Shown here in pieces: positions 25,106 to 32,921 of a DNA stretch of 64,000 bases (position 1 is the first letter of the stretch; each line of letters begins with the position of its first letter). The DNA is taken from sequence record PZ445517.1. The stretch is one strand, 5' to 3'. The DNA is from a phage. The notes beneath the pieces are model-generated. The model ran no database searches and was not told the DNA's origin. It saw only the letters and a program-made list of their open reading frames with translations. Made by a program: the position numbers and the translations under genes.

Positions 25106-25113
25106 TTGTAAAC
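25084..25113 (-). promoter_or_regulatory. early-promoter-like element (GTTTAC, ~18-nt spacer, TATAGT) upstream of the 96-aa ORF
   Basis: Minus strand reads GTTTAC aagttcctcatgttgtg TTATAGT, then leader with GAGG and ATG; nearly identical copy at 40955..40984. Confidence 0.5.
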
Positions 25114-27170
25114 TACATTTTGAACTTTTTAGACATTCCGTTAATGTTAACCAAAGAAGCTAAGATTTGAGAAACTTCGTTTTCCTCTTCTTTTGATTCT
25201 TCTACAAGGAATTGATTAAATCCAGCCATTGGACGAACTTCACCAGTTTCCATTAAATGGTCGCCATCATATACTGATTCTTCTAATTGTTCAGAAGGAG
25301 GAACGATTGTACCTTCGATTAGATACTTGTTATAAGCAGTTTCTTTCATAAAGTACGTACTTACTTTATTAATCTTCAGTAAAATTCCACGCGGTAGAAT
25401 AACTTCAGCTTCTGATGGAAATCCTGTTAAATGACCTGGAACGATAACTTTGATTCGCTCAGCTCCTTTAATTACCATACCCACGCTAGTTTCAGCATTT
25501 TCATTAGCGTATGTAGAATGACTACCCATATGCATCAAATCTTCTGCATCAACAGAACCTTCTCCTTCGCCAGAAAATACTGCGCCGGAATCATCTAGAG
25601 CCATATAGTTTTTACCATGCTCACCGAAGATATTTGGTTTAAGCGATGTGGATACGAAGTTCTTGAAATAAAACATTTTATTTTCAATGTTATGACGCAA
25701 AGTTTTAAAGGTAACTTCTTGTCCACGGTAAAGCGTAGTTCCTGGAGGAAGAACTGAACCTTTAGCGAATGCAGAATCCAACGTCTCGATGTGCTTAATA
25801 GCACGTTCCATATATTCTTCACGGGTAGAATCTGGTTTACCCAAAAGGAACGAGTTCATTTCAACATATGAATCTGCACAATAATCTTCAATTACATCAG
25901 ATTCAGCTTGAGTTAATCCTTTTGGAGTTACTTCAGTACTTGCATATTCATATGCCTGGGCAGCAGATTCATTAATCAATTTATAAATGCCATTCATGAC
26001 AAATTGAATAATAGCTGTCTTTTCATCTGGCGTGGCTTTAGAACCTTTAACCAAATCATTGATAATTTTCTTAATAACATCAAAGCTATTAGAAATATTA
26101 ATATCAGCAAGATCACTTAAAATTTTATCAGTTTTATAATCAAAGAATTCTTTATTCTTTAAATATTCTTGAGAACCTTGATATGTTATATCGCTCTGCA
26201 ACTTGATGGATGGATCACGTAAACGTGCATGGGCTAATGCAATATGATTTCGGAAGTTTTCTAGTTCATAATCGCTAGATTTAAAACGAGAAGCACTCCT
26301 CATACCACCGATAGCTCCTTTGCTGAAGTTTGAACCAATCTGAATAACGCCAGAGTTCATTGGTCCTTCTGCTTTATATACCGGAACTTTAGATTCAAAC
26401 TCTTGATATTTCTTGGCAGCGAAGCTATCACCCTGAAGTGAAGCATCAACAGTAGAATATTGAGCTTGTGCTGCTAATCGACGACTAATTTTAGTTTTCT
26501 GAATAACAGCTTGGTCAGTACGTTTATCATTTTCTAAAGCAATAGAAGCAGCAACAGCGACAGCTTTAGGAACAGCATTACCTGTTTTAACGTCTACATA
26601 AACATCACCAACCTTTGATTCAACTTTTGTGAATAACTCAGTTGAAATAGGAGGTACGCCTGGAATGTCTTCTAAATTGGCATTTTTACGGTAAACCATA
26701 ATATATGCATACTTTTTATCATAGTCCCAGATTTCCTTTAAAAGAACATATCGACCTGCTCCTTTAGTACGTACTAAACGGTCAGCAATAACTTGCATTT
26801 GACGAGCAGCGCCATTTGTTTTACTTTTTAGTACGCGGAATAGGCATGCATCAATTTTATACTGTTTCATTGTTTGAAGAGCAGTATCAAAAACAGCATT
26901 AATGACGCCAATTGGATTTCCACCCAAGTTTCTAAGCTTAACCAGCGATAATTTCTCGTTGACACCTATCATTACGATATGCATCATTTTATCGCCTAGT
27001 TTAACGTTTTTATTTGTATCACCACCAGAGGTGTATGTACAAAATCTAAATCCAGGAAGCACGCTTTCTTCGCCGGCTTGGATAGCAAAAATTTGAGGTA
27101 TTTTATGCTTAGGATTTAAGTTAACAACCGGCGCCGAAGCGCCGTCAAATAATTCTGTAATAAGTTCCAT
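25113..27170 (-). CDS. Alt-like ADP-ribosyltransferase, second tandem paralogue
   Basis: 685-aa ORF; N-terminal ~250 aa closely parallel to the adjacent Alt ORF; C-terminal R-S-E ART signature (YRGQ ... FVSTSL ... EAEVILPRG). Confidence 0.85.
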   Translation of the reverse strand: MELITELFDGASAPVVNLNPKHKIPQIFAIQAGEESVLPGFRFCTYTSGGDTNKNVKLGDKMMHIVMIGVNEKLSLVKLRNLGGNPIGVINAVFDTALQTMKQYKIDACLFRVLKSKTNGAARQMQVIADRLVRTKGAGRYVLLKEIWDYDKKYAYIMVYRKNANLEDIPGVPPISTELFTKVESKVGDVYVDVKTGNAVPKAVAVAASIALENDKRTDQAVIQKTKISRRLAAQAQYSTVDASLQGDSFAAKKYQEFESKVPVYKAEGPMNSGVIQIGSNFSKGAIGGMRSASRFKSSDYELENFRNHIALAHARLRDPSIKLQSDITYQGSQEYLKNKEFFDYKTDKILSDLADINISNSFDVIKKIINDLVKGSKATPDEKTAIIQFVMNGIYKLINESAAQAYEYASTEVTPKGLTQAESDVIEDYCADSYVEMNSFLLGKPDSTREEYMERAIKHIETLDSAFAKGSVLPPGTTLYRGQEVTFKTLRHNIENKMFYFKNFVSTSLKPNIFGEHGKNYMALDDSGAVFSGEGEGSVDAEDLMHMGSHSTYANENAETSVGMVIKGAERIKVIVPGHLTGFPSEAEVILPRGILLKINKVSTYFMKETAYNKYLIEGTIVPPSEQLEESVYDGDHLMETGEVRPMAGFNQFLVEESKEEENEVSQILASLVNINGMSKKFKM

Positions 27171-27173
27171 GAT

Positions 27174-29270
27174 TTATCCTTGAACGAACTTGTAAGGCAT
27201 GTTTGTAATATCTATGCAAGACGCAATAATTCCAAGAGATGATTCTACTTTCTGTTTAACATTTGATGAAACAAATGATGCAAAGTCAACTTTGTCTTCT
27301 ATTTCAATATCACCTGTCATTGCAACTACTTCGCCGGTTTCCATTAAACGGTCACCGTCATAAATTACCGATTCGGTGAGTTCTTCTGTGGTCATAACTT
27401 CAGCTTGAATGAGTTTTGTATTATTAGACGTGATTCCGTCATTATTAGAAGCATCAGTTATTTTATTAACTTTGACCATCAATCCACGCGGTAGAATAAC
27501 TTCAGCTTCTGTTGCTATTCCGAGACTTCCTGGATATACAACATTGACTTTATGAGCTCCATCAATTGCCCATCCTATTTGAACTTTAACGTATTCAGGA
27601 TTTTCTTTATACGCTCTTATTTCGTTTGGATTAATAGTTATTCCTTCTTCATTTTTATCAACTGTTAATTCATTGCGAGCTTCTGGTTCTAAAAGACCAA
27701 TACCAGCATGTGTAATTCCAAAACGTCCAAAAATGATAGGAGTTAAAGAAGTAGATACAAAATTTCTGAAATAGAACACTTTATTTTTAACTAGTGCTTC
27801 GTATATAGGAGCAGTCATACTTTGAGCACGATAAACTGTAATGCCTTCTGGTATACGGTCACCATTTTCAAAAGCTGAATCTAAATTATTTATAGCAGAT
27901 TCAATTTCTTTTTCACTCATTATATCATATCGTTCTGGATTGTAACGACCTAAAAGAAGATTATTGATGTCTGTATATCCTGAACCACAATACTCTCTAA
28001 TGCCGCGCTTTTGTGATGGAGTATATTTAGAACTATCACGGGCAATAGTAATATCAATCATTGGACCTGCACCAATTCCGGAAAAGCTATAAATCATTCG
28101 TTTGAGGAATTTAGTTTTTGCTGCATTCCAGGCATTTTTAGTTATTTCTCCCCAGACTTCATCTGGCTGCCCTTTACGAGTTTTATTATGTTTATCAAGC
28201 CAATTATCTTTATATTCTTCAAATAATTGATTAACAGCTGCTGCGTATTTCTCTAAACATTTTATTGAAGTAGTTGGTTCATTTTTAATCGCATTAAGAA
28301 TTACATCTTTAATTTTTTCTGAAACTTCACCGACTTGACTCATTGGAAAGAATTTATAATCATAGTGAAGTTCATCTGCCGTTCCTTCAGCAATAATTTT
28401 TGCTGCCTTAGTTTTAGAAGCTAATGAATTAATTCCAAGCTTCATTTCTTCTGCTTCGGGAATTAAAGGTGCAGTAGCAGGTTTATTGAAATTAGCTGCG
28501 GTAGATTCATACTTCTGGAATAATTCACTTTCAAATCTAGAAGATTCCAATGACTGACTTTGTGCAATTGCTCTACGGGAAATTTTAACTTTAACGATTA
28601 CGGCTTGGTCAGAACGTTTATCGTTTTCTTGTGCAATAGATGCAGCAATTGCCTCATTTTTGGTTACTTGAGCTCCAGTATCTTTATTAATATAAACATC
28701 ACCGACCTTCGATTCAACTTTAGTAAAGAGCTCGGTACTAATTTCCGGAACTCCTGGAATGTCTTCTAGTGATACATTTTTGCGATGTATAAGAATATAT
28801 GCATACTTTTTATCATAATCCCAGAGTTCCTTAAGAAGGACGTATCTGCCACCTGAACGACTACGGATAAGTCTATCAGCAATAACTTGAATTTGTCGAG
28901 CTTGGCCAGCAGTTTTAGACTTAAGAATACGAAGCATACAAGCATCAATTTTATACTGACGCATTGTTTGCATTGCAACAGTAAAAACTGAATTGATATA
29001 ATTAATTGGGCTTGGACCAAGACCTTTTAATTTAGCAATTGAACCTTTAGCAGTTAATGTAAAAGGAACAATATGCATCATTTTGTCGCCCATTTTTAAA
29101 TCGCGATTAGTATCACCTCCAGATGTATAGGTACATAAACGAAAGCCTGGTTGTTCAATTGCATCATCAACATGAACTGAAAAAATTTGTGGTATTTTCT
29201 TCTTTGGATTTAAGTTTGTAATCGGAAGAGTAGTATCTTCGTCAAATAATTCTGTAATGAGTTCCATCAT
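27174..29270 (-). CDS. alt: Alt ADP-ribosyltransferase (virion-packaged RNA polymerase modifier)
   Basis: 698-aa ORF; R-S-E ART signature (YRAQ ... FVSTSL ... EAEVILPRG); minus-strand TATAAATA late promoter just upstream. Confidence 0.85.
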   Translation of the reverse strand: MMELITELFDEDTTLPITNLNPKKKIPQIFSVHVDDAIEQPGFRLCTYTSGGDTNRDLKMGDKMMHIVPFTLTAKGSIAKLKGLGPSPINYINSVFTVAMQTMRQYKIDACMLRILKSKTAGQARQIQVIADRLIRSRSGGRYVLLKELWDYDKKYAYILIHRKNVSLEDIPGVPEISTELFTKVESKVGDVYINKDTGAQVTKNEAIAASIAQENDKRSDQAVIVKVKISRRAIAQSQSLESSRFESELFQKYESTAANFNKPATAPLIPEAEEMKLGINSLASKTKAAKIIAEGTADELHYDYKFFPMSQVGEVSEKIKDVILNAIKNEPTTSIKCLEKYAAAVNQLFEEYKDNWLDKHNKTRKGQPDEVWGEITKNAWNAAKTKFLKRMIYSFSGIGAGPMIDITIARDSSKYTPSQKRGIREYCGSGYTDINNLLLGRYNPERYDIMSEKEIESAINNLDSAFENGDRIPEGITVYRAQSMTAPIYEALVKNKVFYFRNFVSTSLTPIIFGRFGITHAGIGLLEPEARNELTVDKNEEGITINPNEIRAYKENPEYVKVQIGWAIDGAHKVNVVYPGSLGIATEAEVILPRGLMVKVNKITDASNNDGITSNNTKLIQAEVMTTEELTESVIYDGDRLMETGEVVAMTGDIEIEDKVDFASFVSSNVKQKVESSLGIIASCIDITNMPYKFVQG

Positions 29271-29303: not shown

Positions 29304-29321
29304 AAAGGCCCGAAGGCCTTT
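29304..29321 (-). terminator. hairpin between ligase-side ORF and alt (AAAGGCC-cgaa-GGCCTTT)
   Basis: Stem-loop overlapping the stop of the 62-aa ORF, immediately upstream of the alt late promoter. Confidence 0.45.
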
Positions 29322-29508
29322 AATAATCTATTGGTAAGAGAGTACGATATATTTCAAACTTTGGACCTTTTTCATAGGCATCAAAAGTTTCTGTGAATTT
29401 ATTATAAGCATATGCATCTATAAATTCAATCATGATTTGTGATACAGAAGTAGAAACATCTCCACCTTCTTTTTGAGCCACGACAATTGTTTCTAAGTAA
29501 GCTTTCAT
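29320..29508 (-). CDS. hypothetical small protein
   Basis: 62-aa ORF between ligase and alt; stop overlaps a hairpin. Confidence 0.55.
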   Translation of the reverse strand: MKAYLETIVVAQKEGGDVSTSVSQIMIEFIDAYAYNKFTETFDAYEKGPKFEIYRTLLPIDY

Positions 29509-30968
29509 AAACCAGTTACCTCATGAAAATCACCAAATACATCTTCGAATGTATTAGCTTTAGTTTTATCTTCACGTAAACGAATCGCAATCGGAAGAAA
29601 TAATTTAACGTAATCAGTGCGGCCATCAGATTTTAACCAACCGTTGCATTCGCACTCTAGAATTTTTCCAATATAATAATTTTGGTTTTCCATAATGCGA
29701 GTACGGTCAAGTTCATGCGATTTTACACCGGCTTTATCTTTTAAGCCTGAACCAGCATTTACTTTAATTTTTCCACACTCTGATTCAAGAATAAATCCAC
29801 CCGCTTTAGTAGGGTCTTTACGGTGAGGATAAATTCCTACAATTTTTAAATCAACATCAATTACTTCTTTAAATTTATAGAGATTTTTTGAACGAGCATT
29901 TTCCCATAATCCATCGATATTTTTGAGAATAATACCTTCAAGACCTTGGTCAATATATTTTTTATAAATTACCTTAGCTTCATTTAGGTTATTTACTACC
30001 TGGTTTTCAATTAAAATTACTTTATCATAGCCTGATGTCATTTGTTCTAGTTTAGAAAAACGTACATCATACTTTAAACGAAATGCAGGAAGACCATATA
30101 TTTCTACTAATGGAACATAGTCCCAGACCTGAAACTTCATGCATTGAGCTTCTTTTTCGGAAATGGTTCCCTTTAAAGATTTATTAGCGATTCCATTAGA
30201 AGCAGTACGTGATTCAGCTACTTCGGCGAATTCTTTAGCTTTACTAATTTCAGGATAAGCATCAAAAAGAAAATCTAGGCCTTCTGGTTCCTTTTCAACT
30301 TGCTCATGGTATACCAATTCGCCATCAATTAACACACCTTCTGGATGAATCTGGCGGGCTTCAGCGGTCATTTTGATTAACTCTTCCTTAAGAAGGTCTA
30401 ATCCTAGATATTCATTACCAGCTCGTGATAAAAGACGAACATCATCTAATTCATCACCTCTAACTTCAGCAAAACACCGAGCTCCATCAGCTTTTAACTG
30501 GGCAAAGGCTGGAAATTTAATATTCTTATTAATGCCTTTTTCATCATAAGAACTTGCCAGCATTTGAGGTTGTTCAGGAATTAAACCTGGCCAAACTTTG
30601 TTTGCAATAGATACTGAAGCACCACATTCAAGGTCTCGCATCATCACTCGACGCAAAACTTCAACATCATCTTTTTTACCATCGGTGATGTATCCAGTTA
30701 ATTCCTCAATTGCCGCATTTCCAGTCAATTTCCGAGTAGCTAACGTGAATTCAATGAAGTCAAGCATATCGGTAAGAGTCAACATTCCAAAACTCTGGGT
30801 AGCAATACCAGGTTTAGGCCATTTCTTGATATAATACTGTAACCCACGAGAATAAGTCAGACGATATACTCGTTTAAGCAATTCATTATCTTTATTCTTT
30901 TCAAGAATTGCTTGCTTCTGTTTAGTTGAACCAATAGATGCTATTTCGTTCAGAATTTTAAGAATCAT
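29505..30968 (-). CDS. 30: ATP-dependent DNA ligase
   Basis: 487-aa ORF, N-terminus MILKILNEIASIGSTKQKQAILEKNKDNELLKRVYRLTYSRGLQYYI and KxDG adenylation motif (AQLKADGARCF); matches T4 DNA ligase. Confidence 0.95.
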   Translation of the reverse strand: MILKILNEIASIGSTKQKQAILEKNKDNELLKRVYRLTYSRGLQYYIKKWPKPGIATQSFGMLTLTDMLDFIEFTLATRKLTGNAAIEELTGYITDGKKDDVEVLRRVMMRDLECGASVSIANKVWPGLIPEQPQMLASSYDEKGINKNIKFPAFAQLKADGARCFAEVRGDELDDVRLLSRAGNEYLGLDLLKEELIKMTAEARQIHPEGVLIDGELVYHEQVEKEPEGLDFLFDAYPEISKAKEFAEVAESRTASNGIANKSLKGTISEKEAQCMKFQVWDYVPLVEIYGLPAFRLKYDVRFSKLEQMTSGYDKVILIENQVVNNLNEAKVIYKKYIDQGLEGIILKNIDGLWENARSKNLYKFKEVIDVDLKIVGIYPHRKDPTKAGGFILESECGKIKVNAGSGLKDKAGVKSHELDRTRIMENQNYYIGKILECECNGWLKSDGRTDYVKLFLPIAIRLREDKTKANTFEDVFGDFHEVTGL

Positions 30969-31234
30969 TGTTCATCCTTTAGAGTTTGGTTTACAGCTCT
31001 ATTATAAATCAATTCATCATTAAGCTCAGTCAAAGACCTGTGGTACGTGGTTCTAACTTTATTTCCTTGCATCCAGTGCTTGACGTAAATGAAACCTTGC
31101 TCTACACATTTTTTAAAAATTCGTTCGTCTTTTTGAGCTCGGAATTCTGGATTGCATCTAAAAAATTGATTTACGTGACCGTAATCACGTGTAGTATTAC
31201 CTTCATTTTCATAAATAGTGTGAACAACAAACAT
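30965..31234 (-). CDS. hypothetical protein (position of T4 30.1)
   Basis: 89-aa ORF translationally coupled to ligase. Confidence 0.65.
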   Translation of the reverse strand: MFVVHTIYENEGNTTRDYGHVNQFFRCNPEFRAQKDERIFKKCVEQGFIYVKHWMQGNKVRTTYHRSLTELNDELIYNRAVNQTLKDEQ

Positions 31235-32073
31235 TAGAATGCTCCTTGGAAAATATTATCACCACTAGTAGGTCTATTATACAAATACTCTATGCCACCA
31301 GGTTTAATATAGTTCCATGTCTGAAACGGATGTGTCTGATATGGATGATATAGATGATTATAAGGATTAAATCCAGGAGTTCTCCAGGTAGTGTTCCAAG
31401 GAAAAGAATCGTTTTTGATCATCTTCTCGATTGCATCTTTTATAGCTTTTTCACTATCAAAGCTTTCTTTATTTTCCTTTGGTGAAAAAAGCTTATTCTC
31501 TACATCGTTCCATGTATAAACTCGCTGAGCAGTTTTTGGAATATTGTCACGCTCTCCTCGAGCCATCCAATAAACAGGAACATTTAATATTTCACTCGCG
31601 TGATCGCAGTGGTGAGCGAGATCGTCAATATAACAAATTACGTTATATTTCTCTTTTGCCTTTTTGAACAACTCTTCTTTTGAAGAATCATGACCACACA
31701 TCATTACTTCTGAGAAGGCACCAGGAAAAAGAGCATTCAAATTAAATTGACGATTCAGCAGAGCGTCAATAGAATCACCCAGTGCTGTAACAGCTACAAA
31801 ATTATAATCTTCTTTTAATTTGTTAATTACACACAGAGCATCTTTATATGGAGACAAGTAACGAATAAAATCCGAACGATTGTATTTTTCAATTAACTTG
31901 ACGCCAAGTTCTTCATCACAATTAAAAAGTTTACCTGGAGAAATAAATTTCTCATCTTGGATCATTTTTAAAATATGTTCCAACGGAAGGTTATATTTCT
32001 GGGCAAAATAAGGAAGGCCTGATTGCCAGCTTAAACATACTCCATCAATATCAGTTAAAATAGTAGGCTTCAT
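31234..32073 (-). CDS. HAD-superfamily hydrolase-like protein (position of T4 30.2)
   Basis: 279-aa ORF with N-terminal HAD motif I (TDIDGV) and later acidic motifs. Confidence 0.75.
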   Translation of the reverse strand: MKPTILTDIDGVCLSWQSGLPYFAQKYNLPLEHILKMIQDEKFISPGKLFNCDEELGVKLIEKYNRSDFIRYLSPYKDALCVINKLKEDYNFVAVTALGDSIDALLNRQFNLNALFPGAFSEVMMCGHDSSKEELFKKAKEKYNVICYIDDLAHHCDHASEILNVPVYWMARGERDNIPKTAQRVYTWNDVENKLFSPKENKESFDSEKAIKDAIEKMIKNDSFPWNTTWRTPGFNPYNHLYHPYQTHPFQTWNYIKPGGIEYLYNRPTSGDNIFQGAF

Positions 32074-32534
32074 AAAGAGTCTCTTAATAGGTTTAACACA
32101 TCAATAAATTCAGCTTCGGTTAGTATTGTATCATCTTTTGTTAGACCACTAGCCATGCTGTGCTTCAAAACTTTTCCTTTCGAGGCTTGTAATGCATCGC
32201 GAAAGCCCCTATTTTGGATCGCTGCTTCAAAATATGCATTTGTGTATAATTCTTTCCACGCTGGGGAGTATCTTGAAAATGGAACTCCAAGCCAGAAGAG
32301 GGTCCCACGGTCCTGAGCTCTAGCATAAGACCTTCCAGCTTGTTGGGCGGCAAGCCCAGATAACCCAAATATACGACGTTGTTGTTCAACGTTTTTCACC
32401 TTGCATCCTTGGAGGAATCCTTCAAGACCTCCAAATTGAATACCATCCATAACGAAAGGCCAATGGGCGAAATTACTTAATGCGCATGATGGCCACCTAA
32501 AATTGCTTCTAATCTCTAACTCAGACATTTTCAA
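32070..32534 (-). CDS. NADAR (YbiA-like) domain protein (position of T4 30.3)
   Basis: 154-aa ORF; LSNFAHWPF..DGIQF...EGFLQGCK resembles the NADAR/DUF1768 core (FSNF..WP...DG.....E..FQ..K). Confidence 0.7.
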   Translation of the reverse strand: MKMSELEIRSNFRWPSCALSNFAHWPFVMDGIQFGGLEGFLQGCKVKNVEQQRRIFGLSGLAAQQAGRSYARAQDRGTLFWLGVPFSRYSPAWKELYTNAYFEAAIQNRGFRDALQASKGKVLKHSMASGLTKDDTILTEAEFIDVLNLLRDSL

Positions 32535-32727
32535 TGCTTATAATTTCAACATCAGCCCAATGACCATAGCAAGGAAGACGAAATTCAACTGGCCAGTTAG
32601 GGTCCTTTTCTAATATAATAGACTCAACTTGTGGTTCTTCGTGTTCATCAGTATACGGATTTTTATCTGTTACTTTATATGTGACCTTAATGTACTGAAT
32701 TCCAAAAATCTTATTAATTATATTCAT
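32521..32727 (-). CDS. hypothetical small protein
   Basis: 68-aa ORF, overlapping start/stop with neighbours. Confidence 0.55.
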   Translation of the reverse strand: MNIINKIFGIQYIKVTYKVTDKNPYTDEHEEPQVESIILEKDPNWPVEFRLPCYGHWADVEIISIENV

Positions 32728-32921
32728 ACTAATTCCTTTAATCCGTAGATAGGAGATAATTCATCGCCCATATGAAGGTCTTCATTTCCATCTACCCAAG
32801 AAACAATATAAGCCTCTTTTATTTGAATACCACTCCATTTAAACGGAGGTAGAACCTTAGAAATTAATCCAGGTATACCAACTCCCTTTAATTCAACGGT
32901 TTGACCTAAAAAGAATTTCAT
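32724..32921 (-). CDS. hypothetical small protein
   Basis: 65-aa ORF, coupled to neighbours. Confidence 0.55.
   Translation of the reverse strand: MKFFLGQTVELKGVGIPGLISKVLPPFKWSGIQIKEAYIVSWVDGNEDLHMGDELSPIYGLKELV

Follow-up and report, generated by a model that had tools for sequence, protein, structure and literature searches.

The closest described counterpart of the locus analyzed here is gene 30.3 of bacteriophage T4, to which resistance against DarTG1 was mapped by phage crosses and which was renamed adfN (bioRxiv 10.1101/2024.07.11.602962; PMC11825919). T4 AdfN proved to be both necessary and sufficient against DarTG1, its E36A and K43A variants were inactive, and the purified protein stripped ADP-ribose from DarT1-modified DNA; RB69 owes its DarTG1 sensitivity to a frameshift that deprives its AdfN of the final 15 residues and leaves this copy inactive (bioRxiv 10.1101/2024.07.11.602962; PMC11825919). 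In vitro, T4 gp30.3 hydrolysed guanosine-ADP-ribose but not thymidine-ADP-ribose, and the third catalytic residue was described as His in phage NADARs and as Glu or Asp in other NADARs (PMC11125620). In the HIDEN-SEQ genome-wide transposon screen, insertions in 30.3 were lost specifically under DarTG1 (log2FC of -7.25; bioRxiv 10.1101/2025.11.20.689424, Extended Data Table 6, sheet S6), and the gene was dispensable without DarTG1 (bioRxiv 10.1101/2025.11.20.689424). A phage-borne NADAR that erases DarT-type ADP-ribosylation of DNA is a real enzymatic counter-defence, which was already known from bioinformatics (2023), in vitro work (2024), T4 genetics (2024-2025) and the genome-wide screen (2025), and the DNA studied here contributes just one more intact adfN allele.

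During infection, the host DarT1 ADP-ribosylates guanines in single-stranded phage DNA and blocks replication. AdfN then hydrolyses the bond between ADP-ribose and guanine by means of E36, K43 and the phage-specific H123, and restoration of the base allows the phage to replicate, AdfN acting as an orphan antitoxin. This account of the in vivo mechanism is incomplete, since AdfN gives no rescue from DarT1 toxicity in uninfected Escherichia coli and rescues non-T-even phages only partly (PMC11825919). AdfN is still active in T4-GT7, a strain without any DNA modifications, and the authors of the AdfN paper proposed an additional T-even factor (PMC11825919).

Two further groups of NADAR proteins are relevant for comparison. 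From the antitoxins of the DarG1 and DarT1-associated NADAR group (Geobacter lovleyi NADAR, PDB 8BAT; BC4488 family) AdfN differs in being an orphan with no adjoining toxin gene; it also lacks their N-terminal extension, has a His where their third catalytic residue is Asp, and leaves uninfected cells exposed to DarT1. E. coli YbiA (PDB 2B3W) and the Phytophthora NADAR (PDB 8BAU) share about 20% identity with AdfN; in YbiA-type proteins the third catalytic residue is Glu, and these proteins serve housekeeping functions connected with riboflavin metabolism.

The window, by which we mean the whole 64,000-nucleotide stretch of phage DNA that was analyzed (sequence record PZ445517.1), belongs to a Tequatrovirus. 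Over the 4 kb around the genes of interest, identity is 100% with Escherichia phage T4_ev240 and 97% with T4, and the T4 annotation carries over to the locus gene for gene. The features are as follows:

25113-27170, minus strand: alt paralogue, a full-length alt-type ADP-ribosyltransferase gene (685 aa)
27174-29270, minus strand: alt, a full-length alt-type ADP-ribosyltransferase gene (698 aa)
29320-29508, minus strand: alt.1
29505-30968, minus strand: gene 30, ATP-dependent DNA ligase (Pfam DNA_ligase_A_M, E value of 2.4e-32; T4 annotation)
30965-31234, minus strand: gene 30.1, 89-aa DUF3045 protein (Pfam PF11243, E value of 2.9e-64; T4 annotation)
31234-32073, minus strand: gene 30.2, predicted 279-aa HAD-superfamily phosphatase (fold and four motifs)
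32070-32528, minus strand: gene 30.3 (adfN), 152-aa NADAR-superfamily protein, putative ADP-ribosyl-guanine glycohydrolase (PF08010; T4 orthology)
32521-32727, minus strand: gene 30.4, 68 aa (PHROG 2042)
32724-32921, minus strand: gene 30.5

An earlier sequence-only reading of this DNA had described a 154-aa NADAR-like and a 279-aa HAD-like ORF directly downstream of DNA ligase. Both ORFs are real and lie on the minus strand where that reading placed them; because they are transcribed from this strand, in the order 30.4, 30.3, 30.2, 30.1, 30 (ligase) and alt.1, they are located upstream of the ligase gene. Neither adjoins it directly, as gene 30.1 separates the HAD gene from gene 30. The length of 154 aa corresponds to the program-called ORF at 32070-32534, which begins with a TTG two codons before the ATG at 32528; the latter start, used by the T4 annotation and by the published residue numbering, yields 152 aa.

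The suggested co-operonic arrangement with ligase is plausible for the whole string from 30.4 to alt.1. Every junction within it overlaps by 1-8 nt (4 nt between 30.3 and 30.2), which indicates that the string, in which gene 30 is the last large gene, is tightly packed and probably cotranslated. No terminator-like site was found between genes from 30.4 to alt.1, and the one weak match lies inside 30.3. Scans of the region for promoters and terminators returned sites that were not more numerous than in shuffled sequence and were therefore not used to define the operon. Just before gene 30.7 is the region's best sigma-70-like match (TTGACA-18-TAAAAT, 11/12, 33721-33692, minus strand), and a strong terminator-like hairpin (34129-34108, minus strand) follows gene 30.9 and precedes gene 30.8; the two could mark the bounds of a unit running from 30.7 to alt.1, but the scan performed no better than on shuffled sequence.

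The protein encoded by gene 30.3 is the orthologue of T4 AdfN. It is identical to T4 gp30.3 at 149 of 152 positions (98%), has equal length and occupies the same place between 30.4 and 30.2, and the three substitutions (Q22H, K107R and I125M) are conservative and noncatalytic. When searched alone, the window protein matched a single Pfam family, PF08010 (Phage_30_3; E value of 1.7e-69); NCBIfam and PADLOC gave no match, and single-sequence searches of both gp30.3 and gp30.2 against PDB sequences returned only noise. The NADAR assignment made from the letters was nevertheless borne out at the family level. A profile of 51 gp30.3 homologues matched E. coli YbiA (2B3W) with an E value of 0.0026, the SNF..DG..E..Q..K core being aligned. 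Of 50 family members, 7 matched Pfam NADAR PF08719 directly (best E value of 1.5e-7). These matches place the family in the NADAR superfamily, and the YbiA fold was confirmed independently. E36 and K43 align to YbiA. Across the 50 homologues E36 and H123 never vary, whereas K43 is conserved in at least 90%, and all three residues are retained in the window, where their codons occupy 32423-32421 (E36), 32402-32400 (K43) and 32162-32160 (H123). Neither outcome that the earlier reading had named as refuting it, a profile search that fails to place the ORF in the NADAR family or missing catalytic residues, was thus observed.

Because the window copy of AdfN is full length (152 aa) and keeps the terminal helix (residues 138-151) together with all catalytic residues, it is predicted to be functional and the phage to be DarTG1 resistant. 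The role in counter-defence against DarT that the earlier reading had proposed is thus already on record for the T4 protein, through genetics, in vitro hydrolysis and a transposon screen: removal of ADP-ribose was demonstrated experimentally for that 98%-identical protein, and orthology suggests the same activity in the window phage. We hold with high confidence that the locus is the T4-type 30.4-30.3-30.2-30.1-30 arrangement, in which gp30.3 is the anti-DarTG1 protein AdfN and gp30.2 a separate HAD phosphatase that is not required for this activity.

The YbiA fold of gp30.3, along with the two full-length alt ADP-ribosyltransferase genes located 3-7 kb away in the window, could also point to a primary role elsewhere, either as an N-glycosidase that, like YbiA, would act on intermediates of riboflavin, or as an eraser of ADP-ribosylation by the phage's own Alt/Mod enzymes. 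However, the third catalytic residue is the phage-type His and not the YbiA-type Glu, the published phylogeny puts the gp30.3 family nearest to DarT1-associated NADARs (bioRxiv 10.1101/2024.07.11.602962; PMC11825919), and the only known phenotype of a gene that is otherwise dispensable is DarTG1 specific. We therefore consider such a primary role extremely unlikely, although AdfN may have a secondary substrate. As regards the alt genes themselves, the tandem paralogues are both intact in the window phage, while the second T4 copy is decayed to the fragments alt.-1 and alt.-2, as noted in the T4 annotation.

Two observations concern adfN alleles more generally. A 74-aa ORF lies inside adfN in another frame (32165-32389, minus strand) and corresponds to T4-annotated 30.3', described there as 'internal translation in a different reading frame'; mutations of adfN within this interval also alter the 30.3' ORF. 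In addition, many database entries for gp30.3 are truncated, or are short with an unrelated Pfam match to PF06919, PF11097 or PF06019 (P0107, P0113-P0118 and P0137), which suggests that frameshifts and deletions of adfN may be frequent among natural T-even phages, comparable to the inactive RB69 allele.

If AdfN depends on a helper that confers full activity on it in T-even infections only, gene 30.4, which overlaps adfN, is a candidate that could be examined at little cost. The DarTG1 screen returned exactly two significant genes, 30.3 and 30.4; insertions in the latter were depleted (log2FC of -1.79, adjusted p of 0.014), which amounts to an approximately 3.5-fold drop in T4 fitness (bioRxiv 10.1101/2025.11.20.689424). 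The stop codon of 30.4 overlaps the adfN start by 8 nt, and wherever a T4-type adfN occurs among the fetched loci (14/14 distinct contigs), 30.4 lies before it and overlaps it by these 8 nt. The two genes form a cassette in T-even phages, with 30.4 and 30.3 jointly absent from about 20 loci that retain 30.5, the HAD gene and ligase. The 68-aa product has no Pfam match, and beyond T-even gp30.4 we found no conserved small gene upstream of NADAR genes in other phages. That gp30.4 is a T-even-specific factor which AdfN needs for full in vivo activity seems rather unlikely, although we retain it as a candidate. An ordinary explanation fits equally well, namely that insertions in 30.4 are polar on adfN and that 30.4 and adfN are gained or lost as one indel unit.

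The 279-aa protein, gp30.2, has no match in Pfam or NCBIfam, its PHROG carries no functional assignment, and no study of it was found in the searchable literature. T4-like phages with many different hosts commonly encode homologues, an exhaustive profile search yielding 1351 cluster representatives at an E value of 0.001 or below. The HAD-like character that had been read from the DIDGV motif (32052-32038) is upheld by the alignment, which revealed all four HAD motifs (D8-x-D10, T96, K132 and D150-D151); D8, D10 and K132 are invariant, while T96, D150 and D151 are conserved in at least 90% of the homologues. These motifs, together with the family-specific residues W16, R108 and N111, are kept in relatives of only 24-31% identity. 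In the AlphaFold model, residues 1-200 form a Rossmann-like HAD core with pLDDT above 90, and a C1 cap is built by some 78 helical residues inserted between strands 1 and 2 (about residues 13-90); the tail (residues 200-279) is variable and predicted to be disordered. A Foldseek search of BFVD recovered the gp30.2 family itself, followed by phage '5' nucleotidase' HADs as the nearest named viral structures. On the basis of motifs and model, gp30.2 is predicted to be a HAD phosphatase that requires Mg, acts through an aspartyl-phosphate and is closed by its helical C1 cap.

Among characterized enzymes, gp30.2 appears closest to the NT5C-type 5'(3')-deoxyribonucleotidases (cdN/mdN, PDB 2JAO and 6G2N; Staphylococcus 3BWV; PF06941), with which it shares the C1-capped HAD fold and the four motifs. 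The best match of the family profile among PDB sequences was the 5'(3')-deoxyribonucleotidase 2jao, with DGVLxxW/FxSGL aligned, and 3BWV was aligned over its full length with a broader gp30.2 profile. The invariant W16 falls eight positions after the nucleophile, as does the Phe of DGVLADFESGL in 2jao to which it aligns. This Phe stacks on the base in mdN and cdN; gp30.2 thus possesses both a helical C1 cap and an aromatic residue at the position of the stacking Phe. On the other hand, identity to the solved NT5C members is only 16-21%, gp30.2 ends in some 80 residues of disordered tail, and the NT5C family model (PF06941) did not match the window protein, weak NT5C matches being confined to relatives, 8 of the 49 close ones and 10 of the 27 distant ones. 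We therefore refer to gp30.2 as NT5C-like rather than as a member of the family.

The capped architecture suggests a small phosphorylated substrate. By analogy with the NT5C-type nucleotidases this would most likely be a (deoxy)nucleoside monophosphate, a tentative assignment to which we give somewhat less than an even chance. Distinct from this is a function as a 3'-phosphatase of DNA ends, in which gp30.2 would make nicks ready for the ligase, whose gene follows two positions downstream, much as the HAD domains of eukaryotic PNKP and T4 polynucleotide kinase do. The phosphatase domain of T4 PseT (PDB 1LTQ and 5UJ0), which acts on 3' ends of nucleic acids, is capless, whereas gp30.2 has a large helical cap, and we regard the 3'-phosphatase function as improbable. 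A ligase-linked role in DNA-end or nucleotide-pool processing that was not revealed under the screened conditions is a lesser possibility than the helper role of gp30.4. Gene 30.2 is nonessential in T4, where 72/72 sites were hit, in contrast to the essential ligase gene (bioRxiv 10.1101/2025.11.20.689424).

The link between NADAR, HAD and ligase genes was analyzed by scanning viral loci with profiles, 78 of them surrounding homologues of gp30.2 and 80 surrounding homologues of gp30.3. At 70 of 75 assessable viral loci the HAD gene was followed on its own strand by ligase, while a NADAR gene preceded it by no more than 6 kb at only 37 of 76. Conversely, 19 of the 80 loci with a gp30.3-type NADAR contained the HAD gene and 18/80 had ligase within 6 kb. 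In at least eight T4-like contigs the HAD-ligase pair was kept and the NADAR gene was found 55-60 kb away. These counts show that the HAD gene travels with ligase and that the NADAR gene moves independently, the juxtaposition of NADAR and ligase being a feature of one lineage. Proximity to ligase, on which the sequence-only reading had partly based its functional argument for the NADAR protein, consequently fails as support for it. The adjacency of HAD and ligase genes may reflect function or merely the conserved gene order of T4-like genomes; in either case gp30.2 is a widely conserved, ligase-linked HAD phosphatase, as predicted, of the model phage T4.

The same data bear on a two-enzyme pathway in which gp30.2 would process ADP-ribose, the product of AdfN, or would itself be the T-even factor required by AdfN. 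Such a partnership could be read from the overlap between 30.3 and 30.2, from the published proposal of an additional factor (PMC11825919) and from an unrelated 166-kb contig in which a divergent HAD gene is found near a gp30.3-type NADAR gene. However, insertions in 30.2 were neutral under DarTG1 (log2FC of -0.12, p of 0.61, 71 sites; bioRxiv 10.1101/2025.11.20.689424), which settles the question of a NADAR-HAD pairing and speaks against any part of the HAD gene in counter-defence. The low co-occurrence in both directions and the contigs with a distant NADAR gene argue in the same direction, and the NADAR-HAD pair recurs only once among 61 other contexts, which is chance level. On the published transposon data and the co-occurrence we rejected gp30.2 as a partner of AdfN, and we give the two-enzyme pathway almost no credence.

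Two of the other contexts are described here for completeness. In one (L100, 5905-7753), a gp30.3-type NADAR gene runs directly into a DNA ligase gene whose product is 33% identical to gp30, with no HAD gene between them. In the other, which is the 166-kb contig (L115, 4709-6453), the divergent gp30.2-like HAD gene lies about 675 bp upstream of the NADAR gene with no ligase nearby. The flanks of both loci have no other homologue in common with the window, and two cases among 61 other contexts are about what is expected by chance.

Some members of the gp30.2 family depart from the T4-type arrangement. Four proteins (P0245, P0301, P0197 and P0236) are domain fusions whose extra regions have no Pfam match, and the gene context of P0245, the fusion for which it was read, gave no functional hint. 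The distant member P0260 is encoded in a phage replication module without ligase. Within the otherwise unalignable tails, a motif of the form G-[GT]-G-[IVL]-E-Y-L-x-x-x-P-T (residues about 258-272 of gp30.2; 31234-31300, minus strand, in the window) was found 15-20 residues from the C terminus in 14 of 100 cluster representatives; this short conserved motif may serve in docking.
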